Source: Escherichia coli | Lineage (GTDB): Bacteria; Pseudomonadota; Gammaproteobacteria; Enterobacterales; Enterobacteriaceae | NCBI RefSeq assembly: GCF_048403405.1 | Contig: NZ_CP183129.1 | Strand: one strand, 5' to 3' | DNA length: 64,000 nt | Shown: positions 17,301-58,612 of the stretch, one piece after another | How the letters are laid out: every line of letters starts with the position of its first letter | Position numbering within the stretch: the stretch's first letter is position 1 | Translations under genes and position numbers: made by a program | The notes under the pieces: model-generated | The model's input: only the letters and a program-made list of their open reading frames with translations | Databases searched by the model: none | What the model was told of the DNA's origin: nothing

Positions 17301-20300
17301 TAGCCACAGTGGGCTGGTAGTGAGAAAGTAATCCTTTAAGTACCGCGGCAGCAATTTGGTTAAAATAACGACCAAAACTAAAATCTTGATAGAGAACTTC
17401 AACACCTTGAGATGCACCTTCAGGAAAGATCACTGAAACAGGTTCAATCACGCCTGTCATCATATCGTAGAGTTGCTCTCCTGCTCGCTTGACGGTGTCA
17501 GGAATAGATTGAAGACCTTCGCTATCTAATTGTAATTGATGGAATAATAATGGTAATTTATCACTAGAAATAGATTTTATTTTTTTATAGTAGTTGTGCT
17601 GATTTATCTGTTGGTAAATATAATATCCATCCTCAACACAGGCCTCTAATAAACGTACTAATAATTGATAATAGCGGGGTAAAATGCGTCCTGCTCGCAT
17701 AATATCGATTACAGACATGGGGGTATTCAACTCATGGCCTAAACACGAGCATATCATTTTATCGACGTAATAATTATGTAAAGTGGTAAGTGTTGAATTA
17801 AATGAGTTTAAACGAGGAAGATCGAGTGTTGTAAGCGCTTTTAATGCCGTTTCACGACCTTGGCTAATAGGTAAATCAAATGCGCTTTTTTGTGGTTGAT
17901 ATTTTTCACTATCCTTTTTTTCATACCAATAATATTGTTTTTCAAAGGGATAGAGAGGTAATGGTATATAACTTCCTTGAGTTTTAAACAGTGACTGCCA
18001 TGGTAAATCATAGCCTGCAATAAATAGGGTTGTTGCAGCCTGTTGTTTCATCTGAATTTCATCAACTCCCATTCTGGCAGTTGGTATCCAACTAATCTCA
18101 GTAATGCCTTCACGTTCACCAAGATCACTTAATACAGAAGTTGGTCCTAATTCCATAGCATGGGTGACACCATGATTGACTAACGTTTGTATTGCATCTT
18201 GATACATAACTGTATTGCGTAGTTGCTGAGCCCAATATGATGGATGTTGAAGTTCTTTTTGAGAAATTAATTGCCCTGTATAGCCTGAGACTAAGGCTAT
18301 TTTTCCTTGTGAGGCTGATAATGACTCAGTAAATTCCATCAATTGATCAAGAATATTATCAATATAAGAGGTATGAGCAGCACACACGTTATTCATTTCT
18401 CTAAATCGAATATTCTTTGCTTTCAATATTTGAGTAAACTTTTGCATATCATCGGGTTGCCCCGCGAATGATAAGTTGTTATGGCCATTAATTGCAGCTA
18501 ATTCAACATGACATTGTTTAGCAATGATTTGAATATCTTGATATTCTGCAAATACAGCAATCATTTCACCATTAACATGACTTTCCATTAATTGTCCACT
18601 ATATACAGCAAGTGGCATCATTTGTTCGATTGTATAGAAACCAGCGATAACGGCTGCGGCATATTCTCCGCAAGAATGACCTACAATTATTTCAGGTAAA
18701 ATACCGATTGCTCGCCAATGTGCTGCCATTGCGATTTCATAGGCGACAATAGCCGCTTGAATATAACTGGCATTAACAAGTTTATCGCTATGTAGGCCAA
18801 ACATGACTTCTTTTAACGGAAATGTTAAGTGTTGCAGGCATGCTTGCTCACAACGATCGATTGTTTCGGCAAATGTTGTTGAATGTTGGTACATCACTTT
18901 ACCCATAGCAGGATATTGTGATCCCATACCAGAAAATAGCCACGCTATTTTCTTATTTGTTGATGTATGACCATATTGTATTAAAGAATCAGCACTTCCT
19001 TGAGAGAAAGCTAACAGTGAAATATCACTCTCACTTGTTAAGGGGATAGATAAGCGCCATGGTAAGTTGAGTTGTCTTTGCTGTAATGCATTATGAGCCA
19101 GAATGTTTGCTGGGGTAATTTTTATTAATGGTGCATAATCACCAGCAAGTTTTTTTAGACTCTCTTTTGTGGCGGCACTAAGCAATAATGAGTATTCAAA
19201 ATTATTGTCTACCTCTTGTTCAGGTTTGATTGATACTAATGAGTCAGGCAATGATTGCACAATGATATGACAGTTTGTTCCACCAATACCAAATGAAGAA
19301 ACACCAGCAGTTCGTATTCTGCTAGACCAAGCTTTAGGGTTTTTAGGAATGTAGAACGGGCTTTTTTCTATTTGTAATTGAGGATTTGGGTGATTAAAAT
19401 GCATAGATGGAGGAATAAGTGCTTTATTTACCGCTAATATCGTTTTAATTAGGCCAGTGATACCTGCTGCTGTATCCAGATGTCCGATATTGCCTTTAAC
19501 TGAGCCAATAGCGCATTTAGAAGCAGTAAGAGAGCGATCAGCGAAAACCTGACATAATGCACTAAACTCAATTGGATCACCTAATGGTGTAGCTGTTGCG
19601 TGTGCTTCAATAAGTTCAATATCTTCATTTTTAATATCGGCCAGTTGTATTGCTTCTCTAATAACTGAAACTTGGCCTGCTACGGAGGGAGCTGTGAATC
19701 CCGCTTTTTGATGACCATCATTATTAATGGCACTACCACGTAATACAGCAATAATTGTGTTTCCATCCACTAAGGCATCTTCAAGACGACGTAACACTAC
19801 AATACCAAATCCATTACCAGCAAAAGTACCGTTTGCCTCTGCATCAAAAGGACGACAAATACCATCTGGTGAGAAGATCATGCCTTTCTGATATAGATAA
19901 CCACCGGTTTGTGGAAATGTGATACCAATTCCACCAGCAATAGCCATACTGCATTCACCAGAGCGTAAACTTTCACAAGCCATATGTACGGCAACTAAGG
20001 AGCTAGAACAAGCGGTTTGTATAGTTAATGCTGGACCAGTTAAATTTAATTTATATGCAATACGTGTTGCGAGATAGTCTTTATCATTCCCTAATAATTT
20101 TTGCATGCCACGGACATGGCCAATATTGTGCAATGCTAAATCTTGCTGGGCAGGATAGCTGCTCATTCTTGCTGAAGCAAAAACGCCTGTTTTGATGGTT
20201 ATATTGCAAGGGGCATATCCAGCATGCTCTAAAGCATGCCAAGCACCTTGTAAAAAAATTCTTTGCTGGGGATCGATAAGTTCAGCTTCTGAGCGTGAAT

Positions 20301-52602: not shown

Positions 52603-52941
52603 ATGACGAAAGGAAAAACCGGGCGCCGGTTATGGCCGGTGCTGAAAGTAACCGGGCTGACCCTGCTCAGTATGGTGGTGTTGCTGGCGGTGGCTCAGCT
52701 GGGGCTGAGTTATTACGGTGAGGCGGACAGTCTGCGCCGGGCGTTTTACCGTGCCCGCTGGTTCTGGCTGGTCTGGCGGTGTGTGTTGTACGGAGCCGTG
52801 GCGGTTGGATTATGGAAACTGTATCACCACCCGAAAGTCAGTGAGACGGCCCGGCGCAGTCTGAAGCGCAGCGGGCTGGCGATGGCCGCCTTTGTGGCGG
52901 TGAGTGAATGGTCAGTCTGGGCGGGAGGTGACGGCTTATGA
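52603..52941 (+). CDS. Small 3-TM membrane protein of the transfer operon
   Basis: Start abuts the upstream stop. ATGA overlap with traG. Confidence 0.45.
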   Translation: MTKGKTGRRLWPVLKVTGLTLLSMVVLLAVAQLGLSYYGEADSLRRAFYRARWFWLVWRCVLYGAVAVGLWKLYHHPKVSETARRSLKRSGLAMAAFVAVSEWSVWAGGDGL

Positions 52942-54419
52942 TGACAAACAGTTATCTCGAGTATTTTCTCACGCTGCTGGCCTGGGTGGTGAATAACGGA
53001 TTGTGGTCGGTACTGACCAGCACCGGGCTGTTTGCGCTGCCGCTGGTCTTTAAAGTGCTGGGGATCTGGCTGAAAGTGCGGGAAGAGGGGGAGGATGAGG
53101 GTAACAAAGGTTCACTGGCAATTGTGCGTATCGAGAACGCGCTTTACGGCGCCTTTGTGGTGATCCTGTTTTGTTGTGTGCCGTTGATGGAGGTGAGTGT
53201 CAGTACCCTGCAATTTGATACCAGCCGGACCAAAACCTGCGGCACCTGGACCCCGGTGAAGCCGGCGGAATCCGGTTACAGCGGCGTGGTGTCGTCACTG
53301 GATAATCAGACAGCCAAAATCCCGCTGTGGTGGATGCTGGTACATAAGCTGTCGAAAGGGGTGACTCAGGCGGCGGTGGCCAGCATTCCGTGCCGGCCGG
53401 ATTTGCGTCAGGTGCGTTTTGAGGTGCAGCACAGCAACATTAAAAATCCGGCGCTGGCTGCCGCACTTCAGGATTTTACGGATGACTGTTACTCACGTGC
53501 CCTGTATGACTGGAAAGCGAAAGATCAGGGAAAAACACAGGATGAAAAAACGTTACAGGATATCACCTGGATAGGCTCGGCCACCTTTATGAAAGGGGAA
53601 TATCATCAGATCCAGTCACGGACACCGCGGGCGGGCTTTCCCTGGGATGCCGACCGGGATGACGGGTATGCGAATGTCAACGGCAACGGTTACCCGACCT
53701 GTTATCAGTGGTGGAATGATGCGAATGCAGGGTTACTGAAACTTGTCAAAGAGCAGACCGATGAAGGGATGTGGCTGCGTGCCCGGGCGGCGATGAAGCT
53801 GATTAATAAAAACTCGAAAGAGTTTGAGGAGGCCATCGTCCGCCGGCTGGTGAGTCCGGCGAATCTGGATGTCTCCGGCGGCCGGGTATACCGGGGATAC
53901 GGGGGTAATGCGGATATGACGGTGATGAATGAGCTGGCCAGAATGGGAGGGGTAGCCGGGACTTCGCTGGCGTCACTGGGGGCATTCCCTGCCTTTGATA
54001 CGATGCGACAGTCCTTACCGATGGTGCAGGGGCTGATGTTAATGGCGGTGTATATCATGATCCCGATGGTGCTGATGTTTTCGGCGTATGAATTTAAGAC
54101 GGCGATAACGGTGACGTTTGTGATATTTGCGCTGAACTTTCTGACATTCTGGTGGGAGCTGGCACGCTGGATAGACAGCTGGATGATGGAGGCACTGTAT
54201 AATTCCGATACGCACAGTCAGTGGAATATGAACGGGCTTCAGAACACGTCTGATGATGTCATTATGAACCTGGTAATGGGAACGATGTTTTTGGTGTTGC
54301 CGGCGTTGTGGTTGACAGCATTTGGTTGGGCTGGAGCTAAAGTTGGGTCCGAGCTAGGTAATATGACATCTAACGCGACTTCACCTGCGCATAGTGCGGG
54401 GGGAAAGGAGGACAGTTAG
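52938..54419 (+). CDS. traG: TraG-like conjugal transfer membrane protein (TraG_N domain)
   Basis: Polytopic protein with a large periplasmic loop. It is the last gene of the GC-rich module, and composition drops to AT-rich right after its stop. Confidence 0.6.
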   Translation: MMTNSYLEYFLTLLAWVVNNGLWSVLTSTGLFALPLVFKVLGIWLKVREEGEDEGNKGSLAIVRIENALYGAFVVILFCCVPLMEVSVSTLQFDTSRTKTCGTWTPVKPAESGYSGVVSSLDNQTAKIPLWWMLVHKLSKGVTQAAVASIPCRPDLRQVRFEVQHSNIKNPALAAALQDFTDDCYSRALYDWKAKDQGKTQDEKTLQDITWIGSATFMKGEYHQIQSRTPRAGFPWDADRDDGYANVNGNGYPTCYQWWNDANAGLLKLVKEQTDEGMWLRARAAMKLINKNSKEFEEAIVRRLVSPANLDVSGGRVYRGYGGNADMTVMNELARMGGVAGTSLASLGAFPAFDTMRQSLPMVQGLMLMAVYIMIPMVLMFSAYEFKTAITVTFVIFALNFLTFWWELARWIDSWMMEALYNSDTHSQWNMNGLQNTSDDVIMNLVMGTMFLVLPALWLTAFGWAGAKVGSELGNMTSNATSPAHSAGGKEDS

Positions 54420-55868: not shown

Positions 55869-55907
55869 AGAGAAAAAGGAGGATGTAAAATATTCTCCTT
55901 TTTCTTT
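55869..55907 (+). terminator. Hairpin terminator candidate
   Basis: AGAGAAAAAGGAG / CTCCTTTTTCTTT stem (one G-T pair) with a 13-nt loop, followed by TTTATC. Confidence 0.45.
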
Positions 55908-55915
55908 ATCGGGTA

Positions 55916-55944
55916 TTGACGAAAAAAGAAAGTTTGATTAAATT
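55916..55944 (+). promoter_or_regulatory. Sigma70-like promoter ahead of pseudoknot array 1
   Basis: TTGACG (55916-55921), 17 nt, TAAATT (55939-55944). The array starts about 14 nt downstream. Confidence 0.5.
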
Positions 55945-55957
55945 TACCACGTTACAC

Positions 55958-56176
55958 CGTTGCTTAATGCAACATTGCCAATGCTTCGGTTGTCTGAGAG
56001 AAGCGCCTACGGGTGACAACAATGCCAATCCGGCAATCTGAGAGGAACGCCTACGGGTGATTGCCACTGCCAATCCTCGGGTCATCTGAGACGAGGGCCT
56101 ACGGGCGATGACAGAACTCCGTTCGTCCTTGAAATCGACGGAGGGTGATAACAGAATAGCGTTATCATCAGGATTA
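55958..56176 (+). ncRNA. Tandem pseudoknot array 1 (three units plus two hairpins), STAXI-like
   Basis: Units start at 55977, 56024 and 56069, each GCCAAT-S1-S2-CTGAGA-S1'-GCCTACGGG-S2'. Helix pairs are GCTTC/GAAGC and GTTGTC/GACAAC; CC/GG and GGCAATC/GATTGCC; CCTCG/CGAGG and GTCATC/GATGAC. Hairpins lie at 56117-56143 and 56146-56167. Confidence 0.65.
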
Positions 56177-56389
56177 ACTGCACTTCAGTGACCATGTCAC
56201 AGCTATCCGGTCACTCGGATATCCACAAAAAAGCAGAGTATGCGATAACGTGTATCTGCCTCTTCTGATGTGTTCTGACGAATACGTCCTGCTTTCTGCA
56301 ACCTTTGTATGCCCGGTATGACGCGTTTCCATTGCGCAGCTTTGGAAAGCGGCATCTTCGGAGCAATACATTGAGCAGCAGAATGATGG

Positions 56390-56436
56390 GCGTGCGTCAC
56401 TTTCGTCAAGTGAAACGAAGACAAAGTGACGCACGC
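56390..56436. other. Long hairpin (14-bp perfect inverted repeat) in an untranslated stretch
   Basis: GCGTGCGTCACTTT (56390-56403) pairs with AAAGTGACGCACGC (56423-56436), with additional inner pairs TTCGT/ACGAA. Confidence 0.6.
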
Positions 56437-56824
56437 AAGTGCATACGCTCAGAACGCTTCAATACTGGTCTTACAGCAAAACTGACAATCTGACAGACAT
56501 GTAATGCATTGCTCAGAACGGCTGAAAGTCTTTCAACGCTCAACGTTTATATGATGATAAAAACGTATAACATTATGAAAAAAGGAGAAAAAACGACACG
56601 ATACCAAGGCGACGTCAGGAAACTGACGGACGGAGGTGCCCTGATAACGGGGGCCGGTCTGATGACCGCAAACAGTTCAGAGAACTGATTTGATACCTCT
56701 CAACAACTCAACCTTTTATCGCCCCGGTGCTCAGGTATCTGTCAGGTCGCAGGATGCGCAATATAAAACCGTCGCGCCGGGAAAAGGTAACCAGTTGAGA
56801 GCGAAAGAGGCGGAGAATCAGAGA

Positions 56825-57733
56825 ATGTCCAGAAGAGCAAAAGCCCTGTCCCGTGAAATGCATATCCTTGCACGTCAGGCCGGAGGGAGCTTTAAAACCA
56901 TTGCAGACCGGGTCAAAATTGCAGAACGGGTTGCGGCAGAGCTGGCCGGGTTGAATATTCAGATACGATCTGTTGAGCAACTGAAATCCCGCCATATTGA
57001 AATGTATATCCATGCCCGCAGAGAACAGAATATCAGTTTACGCAGCTGTCAAAACGAAATGTCGGCTATCCGGGCGATATTTCGTGTTGCCGGACGTCAT
57101 AAACTGGCTGACCCTAAACATGAGCGCCTCAGTAATGAGGCGCTGGGGCTTTCAGGTGCCAGCAGGGCTGGCACCCGTACCGCGATATCGGACGAGCGCT
57201 TTCACGAAGCGCTCGCTCGGATTGAGCCTTATGATCAGGGGGTGGCATTAACTATGCAGTTATCCCGTAGTCTGGGATTGAGAAATGAAGAAGCCGTGCA
57301 GTCAGTAAAATCATTACGGACCTGGCAACAGGCGCTTAAAAACGGTAAAGATCGCGTTCATGTGGTTTTTGGGACAAAAGGAGGCAGACCCCGTGAAGCA
57401 TTAGTGCCGGATAAAGCCCGTGTATTAACATTAATTAATAAAGCCATTGAATATGCGGATAAACATAACGGTTATTTAATTAATCGTCCGTCATTACATT
57501 CTGCCAAAGATCGTTATATTAATGTGATGCGACGGATAGGCGGATTTATTCACGAAGAATCAAATCATGGTTTACGGTATGCCTATGCTCAGGATGTTGA
57601 AAAATATTATCTCAGTCAGGGATTCAGTCAAAAGGAAGCCTATGCATTAACCTCCATGGATTTAGGGCATGGTGACGGTCGTGGCGATTATATTAAACGG
57701 GTTTATAGTCAGAAAGGAGATATTGAGGAATAA
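56825..57733 (+). CDS. Tyrosine-recombinase-like protein (phage integrase-fold, Integrase_1-type)
   Basis: Candidate catalytic residues: LGLRNEEA (Arg), HGLRYAYA (His-x-x-Arg), GDYIKRVY (Tyr). ATG 56825 follows GGAG. The TTG-initiated track ORF from 56690 is less likely. Confidence 0.65.
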   Translation: MSRRAKALSREMHILARQAGGSFKTIADRVKIAERVAAELAGLNIQIRSVEQLKSRHIEMYIHARREQNISLRSCQNEMSAIRAIFRVAGRHKLADPKHERLSNEALGLSGASRAGTRTAISDERFHEALARIEPYDQGVALTMQLSRSLGLRNEEAVQSVKSLRTWQQALKNGKDRVHVVFGTKGGRPREALVPDKARVLTLINKAIEYADKHNGYLINRPSLHSAKDRYINVMRRIGGFIHEESNHGLRYAYAQDVEKYYLSQGFSQKEAYALTSMDLGHGDGRGDYIKRVYSQKGDIEE

Positions 57734-57740
57734 GATAAAA

Positions 57741-58352
57741 ATGAAAGTCTGTTTAATTATTTTGTTTATTAATTTTGCTTTTTGTTTTCCGTTAATGGCG
57801 AAGACGTTATTTTTAGGTGATTCATTAACGGCTGTTTATGAAATGTCAGCAAAATATGTTTTGGATGAAAAAATAAAAACAGAATATGTTTCCGGTTCGG
57901 GGTTAATAAATAAAAGTAAAAAAGATTGGATCGCTTTCGTGAATAATTTCGATTTGCGGGAGTTTGATAATGTGATTATTAGTCTCGGAACAAATGATTT
58001 TGTTCAATATGGTTCGGATGAATGGCTGAAATATTACAGTCTGGTATTTCAATTCATTGCTGAAATTCAAAGTGAAAATCCGTTAGCGACAATTGTCTGG
58101 ATATCTCCACCACATTTAAAAAATCCGGAACATGAACGTTATTTAATACATACCCGGCATATAATTAAACACAGTGCGATGTTATTAAATATTCATTATC
58201 TGGATATTAATCAGCCTCATATATTAGGAACGCAATGGCAATCTGTTATTCATAATGAAACTGTACGAACTGATGATGGAATACATATTACCCGTAAAGG
58301 GGGAGTACGGGTGATCAGAGAAGTGGTAAAAATCCTGAATGGGCAGGATTGA
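57741..58352 (+). CDS. Secreted SGNH/GDSL-family hydrolase
   Basis: Signal peptide. Block I FLGDSLT, block III LGTND, block V DDGIHIT. It is markedly more AT-rich than the flanking genes. Confidence 0.75.
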   Translation: MKVCLIILFINFAFCFPLMAKTLFLGDSLTAVYEMSAKYVLDEKIKTEYVSGSGLINKSKKDWIAFVNNFDLREFDNVIISLGTNDFVQYGSDEWLKYYSLVFQFIAEIQSENPLATIVWISPPHLKNPEHERYLIHTRHIIKHSAMLLNIHYLDINQPHILGTQWQSVIHNETVRTDDGIHITRKGGVRVIREVVKILNGQD

Positions 58353-58391: not shown

Positions 58392-58612
58392 CGTTGCGTA
58401 ATGCAACTTGCCAATGCTTCGGTTGTCTGAGAGAAGCGCCTACGGGTGACAACAATGCCAATGTTCCGGCAATCTGAGAGGAACGCCTACGGGTGATTGC
58501 CACTGCCAATCCTCGGGTCATCTGAGACGGGAGCCTACGGGCGATGACAGAACTCCGTTCGTCCTTGAAATCGACGGAGGGTGATAACAGAATAGCGTTA
58601 TCATCAGGATTA
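58392..58612 (+). ncRNA. Tandem pseudoknot array 2, STAXI-like (direct repeat of 55958-56176)
   Basis: Near-identical to array 1. Unit 2 has the fuller S1 helix GTTCC/GGAAC (3-nt indel relative to array 1). The array is followed by TTTTT. Confidence 0.65.

Follow-up and report, generated by a model that had tools for sequence, protein, structure and literature searches.

Positions 56177-56824 of a 64,000-nucleotide stretch of Escherichia coli DNA (NCBI RefSeq contig NZ_CP183129.1; the whole stretch is called the window below) form a non-coding region of an ICEPm1-like integrative conjugative element (ICE), located between an array of STAXI pseudoknots and a gene encoding a protein with a tyrosine-recombinase fold. 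On balance, this region probably corresponds to the transfer origin (oriT) and leader module of a relaxase of the MOB_M family encoded by the downstream gene, and a hairpin that it contains, hereafter H1, to the recognition hairpin of this relaxase. The oriTs of MOB_M relaxases are located just upstream of the relaxase gene, between this gene and the genes involved in mating-pair formation (MPF) (bioRxiv 10.64898/2026.01.13.699239), and the window displays the same organization. Indeed, the non-coding region, with its conserved inverted repeat, lies between a TraG_N gene, on the upstream MPF side, and the gene of the tyrosine-recombinase-fold protein.

This 909-nt gene is identical to the coding sequence annotated WP_004252296.1, and its product is 100% identical in Proteus and Providencia; the homologue of the product on pSGI4 is WP_033567157.1. 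Both WP_004252296.1 and WP_033567157.1 are among the seven seeds of MOB_M, relaxases that are often annotated as integrases and that are tied to ICEs of MPF type G (bioRxiv 10.64898/2026.01.13.699239). What an earlier model-made annotation, drawn from the DNA letters of the window (hereafter the first-pass annotation), had called a recombinase-like gene is therefore listed as a seed of tyrosine-recombinase-like MOB_M relaxases. The candidate catalytic residues (Arg, Lys, His-x-x-Arg, His and Tyr) are invariant in the protein alignment, and a profile search with the protein against PDB sequences gave no match. From its sequence relationships, the gene product is best read as a MOB_M tyrosine-recombinase-like relaxase and not as an ordinary integrase.

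H1 is built around a 14-bp perfect inverted repeat (56390-56403 and 56423-56436, arms 19 nt apart), already pointed out by the first-pass annotation, which goes beyond what shuffled sequences display: in 300 shuffles of 56177-56824, searched for perfect inverted repeats with a loop of 3-30 nt, the longest one reached 10 bp and 14 bp was never attained. In the minimum free energy fold, the stem resumes beyond a 1-nt bulge (C56404) with the pairs G56405-C56422, T56406-A56421 and C56407-G56420, and amounts to 17 bp. The extension of the repeat by TTCGT/ACGAA that had been proposed stands only in part: the two pentamers are complementary, but T56402 and T56403 are already paired in the 14-bp stem and there is no collinear extension. 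The smaller dyads reported in the same region are real. The fold of the + strand of 56116-56830 is far more stable than that of its shuffled versions (z = -8.1; -3.8 for the - strand). H1 lies outside the models of both STAXI and EFASI, a candidate structured RNA of Rfam whose match begins 150 nt 3' of the hairpin, and no Rfam family matches H1 at E <= 1. An intrinsic terminator at H1 was considered and ruled out: no T-run directly follows the hairpin (3' of it, the + strand reads AAGTGCATACGC and the - strand CCCATCATTC), and the scan of the + strand reports no terminator there.

H1 is under structural selection. Among 47 distinct H1 sequences, 88.6% of the cells pair, and 12 of the 20 pairs have changed on both sides, compared with 7.3 +/- 1.3 after shuffling, none of 500 shuffles being as high; sliding the pairing partners destroys this covariation signal. 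The changes that affect only one side of the stem lead to G.U pairs on the + strand. Within the stem, an 8-bp core duplex, GCGTCACT/AGTGACGC, is constant in sets of 47 and 65 distinct sequences, with the exception of two G.U pairs and a single compensated change. Among relatives, the core halves stand 13 to 26 nt apart (in the window, the gap from GTCAC to GTGAC is 25 nt), so that the core is a constant element only once it is folded. For the same reason, recognition by a fixed dimer bound to duplex DNA is excluded.

The apex of H1 varies in sequence and displays a strand-specific structure. On the + strand, 39 of the 49 distinct apices have at their centre a G-N(1-3)-A loop with two Watson-Crick closing pairs, but on the - strand only 2 of them do (mean for shuffled apices, 4.8). 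The apices seen include GCGAAGC, GCGTAGC, CCGAAGG, CCGGAGG, GCGTTAGC and GTGAAAC, the last being that of the window. The tetraloops (GUUA, GGUA, GCCA, GCUA and GUCA) mostly break the GNRA rule of RNA and fit the GNNA rule of DNA, and mini-hairpin motifs of the GCGNAGC/GCGNNAGC type are DNA motifs whose RNA versions are far less stable (PMC13037366). Folding with DNA energy parameters also favours the + strand, in 48 of 59 H1 sequences. A strand call from wobble pairs (12 versus 6) and RNA folding energies (35 versus 21 sequences) was set aside as weak. RNA elements usually show the opposite of this combination, in which the duplex is invariant and the loops are free, and which would suit a read-out of B-form DNA.

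These features bear directly on a rival explanation according to which H1 acts only as RNA, as a protein-binding or processing hairpin (for example for RNase III) of a STAXI-H1-EFASI leader that controls the expression or stability of the downstream mRNA. We regard this as unlikely. In its favour, STAXI has a conserved promoter ahead of it, and the scan showed no convincing terminator before the gene; STAXI and EFASI have entries as RNAs, and reverse transcription-quantitative PCR (RT-qPCR) detected the two in another E. coli strain (PMC12370729); the + strand fold is far more stable than that of shuffles (z = -8.1); and all the strand-specific features of H1, including the one-sided changes to G.U, are on the transcribed sense. 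However, conservation is inverted relative to typical RNA elements, since the identity of an 8-bp stem is fixed while the loops vary, and the tetraloops and mini-hairpins are of the kind favoured in DNA and much less stable in RNA (PMC13037366). In addition, the oriT repeats of SGI1 are transcribed yet dispensable for the function of its small RNA (sRNA) (PMC9299015), and H1 is retained on small plasmids that carry no gene to regulate. The first-pass suggestion of a regulatory leader or non-coding RNA is borne out for the EFASI part, a catalogued candidate RNA; H1 is best read as a DNA hairpin of an oriT.

No protein-coding gene accounts for the conservation of the region. No short open reading frame (ORF) of 56177-56824 has a match in Pfam, and in 14 diverged homologous regions no coding signal was found: all six frames show 10-12% synonymous changes, every frame contains 55-83 stop codons, and indel lengths, distributed as 130/232/148 modulo 3, have no bias towards multiples of three. 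A small ORF or protein-coding gene is therefore ruled out by the absence of both frame-specific conservation and Pfam matches, in agreement with the first-pass annotation, which had seen no convincing ORF. The alignment of homologous regions that it had proposed as a check revealed that H1 is conserved, and no conserved small protein gene emerged. The description of the region as structured, non-coding and placed 3' of the promoter and STAXI array likewise holds, and in every relative it lies, in one orientation, 5' of the gene at 56825.

The distribution of H1 was examined with R1, a covariance model of the hairpin built from 12 sequences. In the window, R1 has a single match, which scores 60.4 bits on the + strand with a palindromic shadow of 32.6 bits on the - strand. 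Each related locus carries one H1, and the gene-sense strand is always the higher-scoring one. In 80 metagenome loci fetched via protein alignment alone, 74 of which have enough upstream DNA, H1 is present in 73 of these 74, 274-558 nt upstream of the start codon and on the same strand as the gene. The order STAXI - spacer - H1 - EFASI - gene is found in elements from Pantoea, Erwinia, Salmonella, Klebsiella and Serratia and in other elements from E. coli. In SGI-4, the homologue of H1 lies at 2030-2089 of locus L007 (such numbers designate the loci compared here); the pSGI4 copy has the coordinates 2485-2544, approximately, on NZ_CP061046.1.

H1 also extends beyond Enterobacterales. A hairpin with the same core precedes homologues of the gene whose products are only 26-38% identical. 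Loci from Thiothrix and Burkholderia carry H1, and the Rfam scan, which covered these two, was negative for STAXI and EFASI; Caballeronia, Paraburkholderia and the Vibrio plasmid pSIO1 also carry H1 before the gene, and Francisella pFNL10 carries it in a diverged form. From this distribution, H1 is older than EFASI and STAXI. In Burkholderiales, the interval from H1 to the gene contains a conserved sequence, rich in hairpins, that is common to the loci L015 (2105-2333), L107 (1065-1306) and L108 (1072-1327). Rfam gave nothing for this spacer in L015, the one of the three that the scan took in; the shared sequence could be the counterpart of EFASI. On pSIO1 (L109, NC_006860.1; 4.9 kb, typed non-mobilizable), the segment 1366-4819 contains an H1-type repeat, a PF12834/PF12835 gene, a small ORF and a gene for a full type IV coupling protein (T4CP), and looks, from its gene content, like a minimal mobilisation unit. 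The association of the gene with a T4CP fits DNA transfer and not multimer resolution.

The latter function corresponds to a second rival explanation, in which H1 would be the core recombination site, for resolution of multimers or cointegrates, of a true tyrosine recombinase encoded downstream (compare loxP-cre and rfsF-resD), and in which small plasmids carrying only the site would recombine with the large element. Several observations are those expected from such a system: the protein has both tyrosine-recombinase domains and the invariant candidate catalytic residues; there is one H1 per element, upstream of the gene; homologues of the gene reside on small plasmids, where a resolvase is expected; and the geometry in Vibrio pSIO1 (15-nt arms and a 7-nt spacer) and in Thiothrix (~14-nt arms and a 6-nt spacer) is that of a canonical core site. 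However, a variable distance of 21-26 nt separates the half-sites in the window, as in all Enterobacterales, and strand exchange over a spacer of 6-8 bp is not compatible with such a distance. Furthermore, the spacer is selected for self-pairing and for a strand-specific loop, neither of which a duplex site needs, and the pSIO1 gene is paired with a T4CP, which is a transfer function.

Mosaic junctions provide another argument on both sides. High-identity homology between lineages rarely breaks from H1 to the end of the gene (a single bin, +125, in two loci), and H1, EFASI and the gene are thus inherited as one unit. Three sets of lineage pairs switch at or inside H1, with 94-99% identity on one side and about 60% on the other, as expected from a recombination site. 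The switch occurs, though, at three different positions: at the 3' edge of H1 (window versus L044), just past the 5' core (L022 versus L083-L085 and L020 versus L086) and at the 5' edge (L042 versus L054), as would result from recombination at any conserved patch. Homology breaks are frequent upstream of H1, where the junctions at -125 and -375 are as common as those at H1 or commoner. An enrichment of breakpoints at H1 was therefore rejected: the junctions are real but fall at differing nucleotides and are equally common farther upstream. The end of the homology between L021 and IncK plasmids at H1 was also discarded as an indication of site-specific exchange, since an insertion sequence (IS) adjoins the break and makes it uninformative. 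Altogether, a resolution site has a low probability in our view.

The module formed by STAXI, H1 and EFASI is also found without the gene on very small plasmids typed non-mobilizable, of which it can represent a quarter to a third. These include Rahnella pHW4594 and Pantoea pOC5aC, both ColE1-like, a 3.1-kb rolling-circle plasmid of the Rep_1 type (L021) and a 5.3-kb plasmid of E. coli TUM9803; their replicons thus differ (Rep_1 rolling circle, ColE1-like and one other). The H1 model found no match in 2-kb relatives of the rolling-circle plasmid. One such relative, which lacks the module (L105, CP067583.1, 2058 bp), contains, at about 560-610, in the stretch whose place the module takes in L021, the sequence GTGACGTCACTTTGCGGCGTTAGCC, in which an H1-like half-core is followed on the same strand by the GCGTTAGC mini-hairpin and which the H1 model does not score. 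On L021, the hexamer CTTGAT at 2531 was tried as a nick site on the module strand and dropped, as it occurs at chance level and is not conserved in related plasmids.

The presence of the module on Rep_1 rolling-circle and ColE1-type plasmids brings to mind a host-dependent single-strand initiation (ssi) site or single-strand origin, which would prime the complementary strand after transfer or during rolling-circle replication and which the first-pass annotation had put forward. The same mini-hairpins are indeed found at priming sites (GCGTTAGC in St-1 and alpha3, CCGAAGG in RSF1010 ssiA and GCGAAAGC in G4; PMC13037366), with matches to them in L008 and in L019, L020 and L022, and an invariant motif containing CTG lies 3' of the hairpins. 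More generally, the H1 apices are identical to the mini-hairpins of the G4, St-1 and alpha3 origins, RSF1010 ssiA and the N4 promoters, or belong to the same GCGNAGC or GCGNNAGC type. Unlike these sites, however, the mini-hairpin of H1 is a variable cap over a conserved 8-bp duplex, and no primase or N4-type polymerase is associated with it.

The orientation of the module on L021 also argues against priming. There, the module is antisense to rep, whereas a conserved block containing the replication origin motif is rep-sense. This motif is pC194-like, and the nick strand is presumed from that similarity. The displaced strand would thus carry the complement of the module, the module itself being on the opposite strand. 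In addition, H1 displays a tight and ancient linkage to one protein family rather than to hosts or replicon types; it occurs as a single copy in elements of 60-100 kb, where discontinuous synthesis would need several; and its invariant core argues for a dedicated sequence-specific partner. A priming function of H1 and its neighbours hence appears improbable.

A single-stranded DNA (ssDNA) promoter of the Frpo type, which would drive early transcription of the gene at 56825 from the incoming strand, is more improbable still, to the point that we give it almost no weight. The first-pass annotation had noticed TTGACG within the stem on the complementary strand. This hexamer is present (56404-56409) and leading-region-type genes are found nearby (ArdC downstream), but it sits in the apical portion of the hairpin, which varies, and relatives lack it. 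Moreover, the only sequence found 17 nt farther on is TCATTC, outside the stem, so that the stem contains no -10 partner; a 17-bp stem cannot hold both hexamers, whereas known Frpo hairpins rebuild the -35, the -10 and the UP element (PMC11541004); and the strand-specific loop is on the + strand, not on the template strand. H1 shares with Frpo and ssi promoters its nature of a hairpin-forming sequence, likely acting as ssDNA, among leading-region-type genes of a conjugative element. It differs from them by the lack of conserved -35 and -10 boxes, by its too short stem and by strand-specific features on the gene-sense strand. The general idea of an ssDNA signal of conjugation fits. The conserved features (an invariant core duplex, G-N-A loops of the DNA type on one strand and a neighbouring relaxase-like gene) indicate an oriT hairpin and not a promoter or a priming site.

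If the region is the oriT of the MOB_M relaxase, H1 would be its inverted repeat, folded on the gene-sense (+) strand into a DNA hairpin and read in that form. Recognition of the invariant duplex would fall to the relaxase, acting by itself or with partners, and the variable apex would only have to ensure stable closure of the hairpin, which we propose as the reason for the G-N-A mini-hairpin loops. After a nick nearby, the + strand would enter the recipient by its 5' end, with the gene of the relaxase and the anti-restriction region in front and the mating-pore genes at the rear. By analogy with SGI1, the transcript initiated at the STAXI promoter would cross the oriT, and EFASI, as the 3' domain of this transcript, may serve transfer as an RNA cofactor and not be a leader in the classical sense. 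Those small plasmids that carry STAXI, H1 and EFASI but not the gene would be oriT-only hitchers.

This organization resembles that of several known systems. As for the oriT and mpsA of SGI1, oriT1 and mobK of pIGRK, oriT and tcpM of pCW3 and the oriT of SGI-4, a non-coding region directly precedes a gene encoding a protein with a tyrosine-recombinase fold. The oriTs of TcpM, MobK and MpsA, the three relaxases of this type that have been studied, contain inverted repeats that adjoin the relaxase gene (directly upstream of it for MobK), and a fully conserved GC-rich repeat is essential in the oriT of SGI1. As in MOB_M oriTs, the region contains inverted repeats, one of which is strictly conserved. 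The tellurite-resistance islands of O157 carry an oriT similar to that of SGI-4 without any relaxase (bioRxiv 10.64898/2026.01.13.699239); oriT-only hitchers are thus known for MOB_M, and the small plasmids that carry only the module appear alike. Compared with the MOB_M oriT literature that we read, the invariant core, the covariation, the G-N-A apex and the spread to Vibrio, Thiothrix and Burkholderiales are new.

In SGI1, the primary transcript crosses the oriT, and its 3' domain, located between the oriT and mpsA, is the sgm-sRNA, which is essential for mobilisation (PMC9299015). The order of the parts is matched here, with the promoter and STAXI, H1, EFASI and the gene corresponding to the promoter, the oriT repeats, the sRNA and mpsA. 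The likeness is limited to architecture, and no STAXI has been reported in SGI1. It leads to a more ambitious proposal, which we put forward tentatively and hold to be possible but rather doubtful: STAXI, H1 and EFASI may form a self-contained mobilisation cassette, in which H1 would be read by the relaxase on the transferred strand and structured RNAs would be provided for the relaxosome, EFASI being the counterpart of sgm-sRNA. As a separate observation, two small GC-rich repeats by the SGI1 oriT (17987-18017, primer deloriTfor, PMC9299015 supplement), GCGCGAAGCGCG and CGCCGAAGGCG, belong, like the H1 apex, to the type of mini-hairpin that has a GAA triloop.

Several points weigh against an oriT recognised by a MOB_M relaxase. 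The assignment of the gene product to MOB_M is bioinformatic. The product has an N-terminal SAM-like domain and the full candidate catalytic set, as in a true recombinase, and thereby keeps a core-binding-like domain, unlike MobK, TcpM and MpsA, which are described without one. The ICE also encodes another relaxase, the MOBH TraI. The oriT of SGI-4 has been localised experimentally (bioRxiv 10.64898/2026.01.13.699239), but the fragment concerned may or may not contain H1, and the sequence of H1 differs from that of SGI1 IR1 as read from the primer. Wobble pairs provide a weak strand signal (12 G.T versus 6 A.C). In the case of + strand transfer, the sense of the leading genes would be that of the transferred strand, which is opposite to the rule reported for plasmid leading regions (PMC11541004). 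Finally, the RNA-type UNCG loops of STAXI, together with the STAXI and EFASI RNAs detected by RT-qPCR, leave room for an RNA role of H1.

The features of the locus are listed in Table 1. An 801-nt query from it is 100% identical to a sequence of E. coli CRE287. Upstream of 56177-56824 are ICE-type conjugation genes encoding TIGR037xx proteins and TraG_N (52938-54419). The MOB_M-type gene is followed by a gene encoding an SGNH hydrolase and by a second STAXI array, and, past the end of the window in the same record, by hypothetical genes and the genes of ArdC, the MOBH-type TraI and a true integrase, and by tRNA-Phe. The hydrolase (57741-58352; SGNH/GDSL type, DUF459), with its signal-peptide-like N-terminus, is an odd neighbour in a DNA-processing region.

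Table 1. Positions of the features discussed (window coordinates, except in the last row, where loci are named)
Feature	Position	Strand	Basis or remark
Promoter, sigma-70-type, TTGACG-17 nt-TAAATT	55916..55944	+	Consensus scan; would start transcript at STAXI array
STAXI pseudoknot array 1 (Rfam RF01728), 5' part of module	55958..56115	+	112.1 bits versus gathering score 40.5
Hairpin H1	56385..56442	+	Inverted repeat; R1 covariance model; proposed oriT recognition inverted repeat
Core duplex, 5' half GCGTCACT	56394..56401	+	Retained in Vibrio, Thiothrix, Burkholderiales
Mini-hairpin GTGAAAC of the apex, with T-A and G-C pairs closing a GAA triloop	56410..56416	+	G-N-A loop count
Core duplex, 3' half AGTGACGC	56425..56432	+	Same basis as 5' half
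TCTGAC motif between H1 and EFASI	56489..56494	+	Invariant in 13 of 13 aligned Enterobacterales loci
Purine box AAGGAG, directly 5' of EFASI	56582..56587	+	Seen in the majority of the Enterobacterales loci aligned; L003 and L018 have a degenerate form
EFASI (Rfam RF02957), candidate structured RNA	56593..56744	+	78.1 bits versus gathering score 51.2
Gene for tyrosine-recombinase-fold protein, PF12834 and PF12835	56825..57733	+	Pfam; annotated 'integrase domain-containing protein'
STAXI array 2, before next gene block	58392..58551	+	123.3 bits; no H1 or EFASI after it
STAXI-H1-EFASI without MOB_M gene	L021 (NZ_CP135679.1, 3139 bp) 78-880; L023 4401-5160; L003 3043-3670; L024 4374-4834

EFASI, which the first-pass annotation had overlooked, covers 152 of the 648 nt of 56177-56824 only, and its match is full-length (model positions 1-133 of 133). 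It is described in Rfam as located several hundred bp 3' of STAXI and 5' of integrase genes, with no function assigned (PMC12370729). The spacing observed agrees with this description, STAXI ending at 56115, EFASI starting at 56593 and the gene at 56825. EFASI lies between H1 and the gene in all the scanned Enterobacterales relatives that are not disrupted by an IS, and the placement of STAXI relative to H1 and EFASI matches across related loci. The promoter-like signal that had been noticed before the STAXI array was also found. It is conserved in most of the loci inspected: a by-eye reading of 15 loci indicated, in most of them, a TTGAC(A/G) -35 box and a plausible -10 box about 10-15 nt 5' of the start of STAXI.

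Among the smaller motifs, TCTGAC is a candidate recognition or nic-region motif; it was not found in six loci from outside Enterobacterales. The segment that holds it (56476-56496, GCAAAACTGACAATCTGACAG) shares 76% identity with a portion of a repeat unit of STAXI (56024-56044, GCCAATCCGGCAATCTGAGAG), of which it may be a degenerate version. Downstream of the AAGGAG purine box, the aligned Enterobacterales loci have neither a start codon nor a reading frame that is conserved. Just 5' of the STAXI promoter, at 55871-55905, lies a terminator-like hairpin followed by a T-run, whose 3' arm (55893-55903, TTCTCCTTTTT) is fully complementary to the purine box sequence AAAAAGGAGAA (56579-56589), possibly by chance. 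A CTCAAC motif also occurs some 90-150 nt ahead of the start codon, in the window (56700-56712, inside EFASI), in Thiothrix (L014, 1246-1253) and in Francisella pFNL10 (L110, 2300-2308); in the window and in L014, it reads AACTCAAC.

The abundance of MOB_M relaxases came to light only in 2025-2026, and they are reported to be the commonest relaxase type in bacterial chromosomes (bioRxiv 10.64898/2026.01.13.699239). The H1 core GCGTCACT/AGTGACGC, found from Enterobacterales to Vibrio, Thiothrix and Burkholderiales, is a concrete candidate for their recognition element. The placement of STAXI and EFASI inside the proposed oriT module also ties them to SGI1, the one system in which an RNA is known to be essential for mobilisation. 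The cassette proposed above, if it is real, would give a function to two orphan Rfam motifs, would define the MOB_M recognition element and would explain small plasmids that carry the cassette alone and are typed non-mobilizable as hitchers provided with an oriT and RNAs. The covariance model of H1 could also flag oriT-only hitchers among small plasmids and genomic islands that are now typed non-mobilizable.

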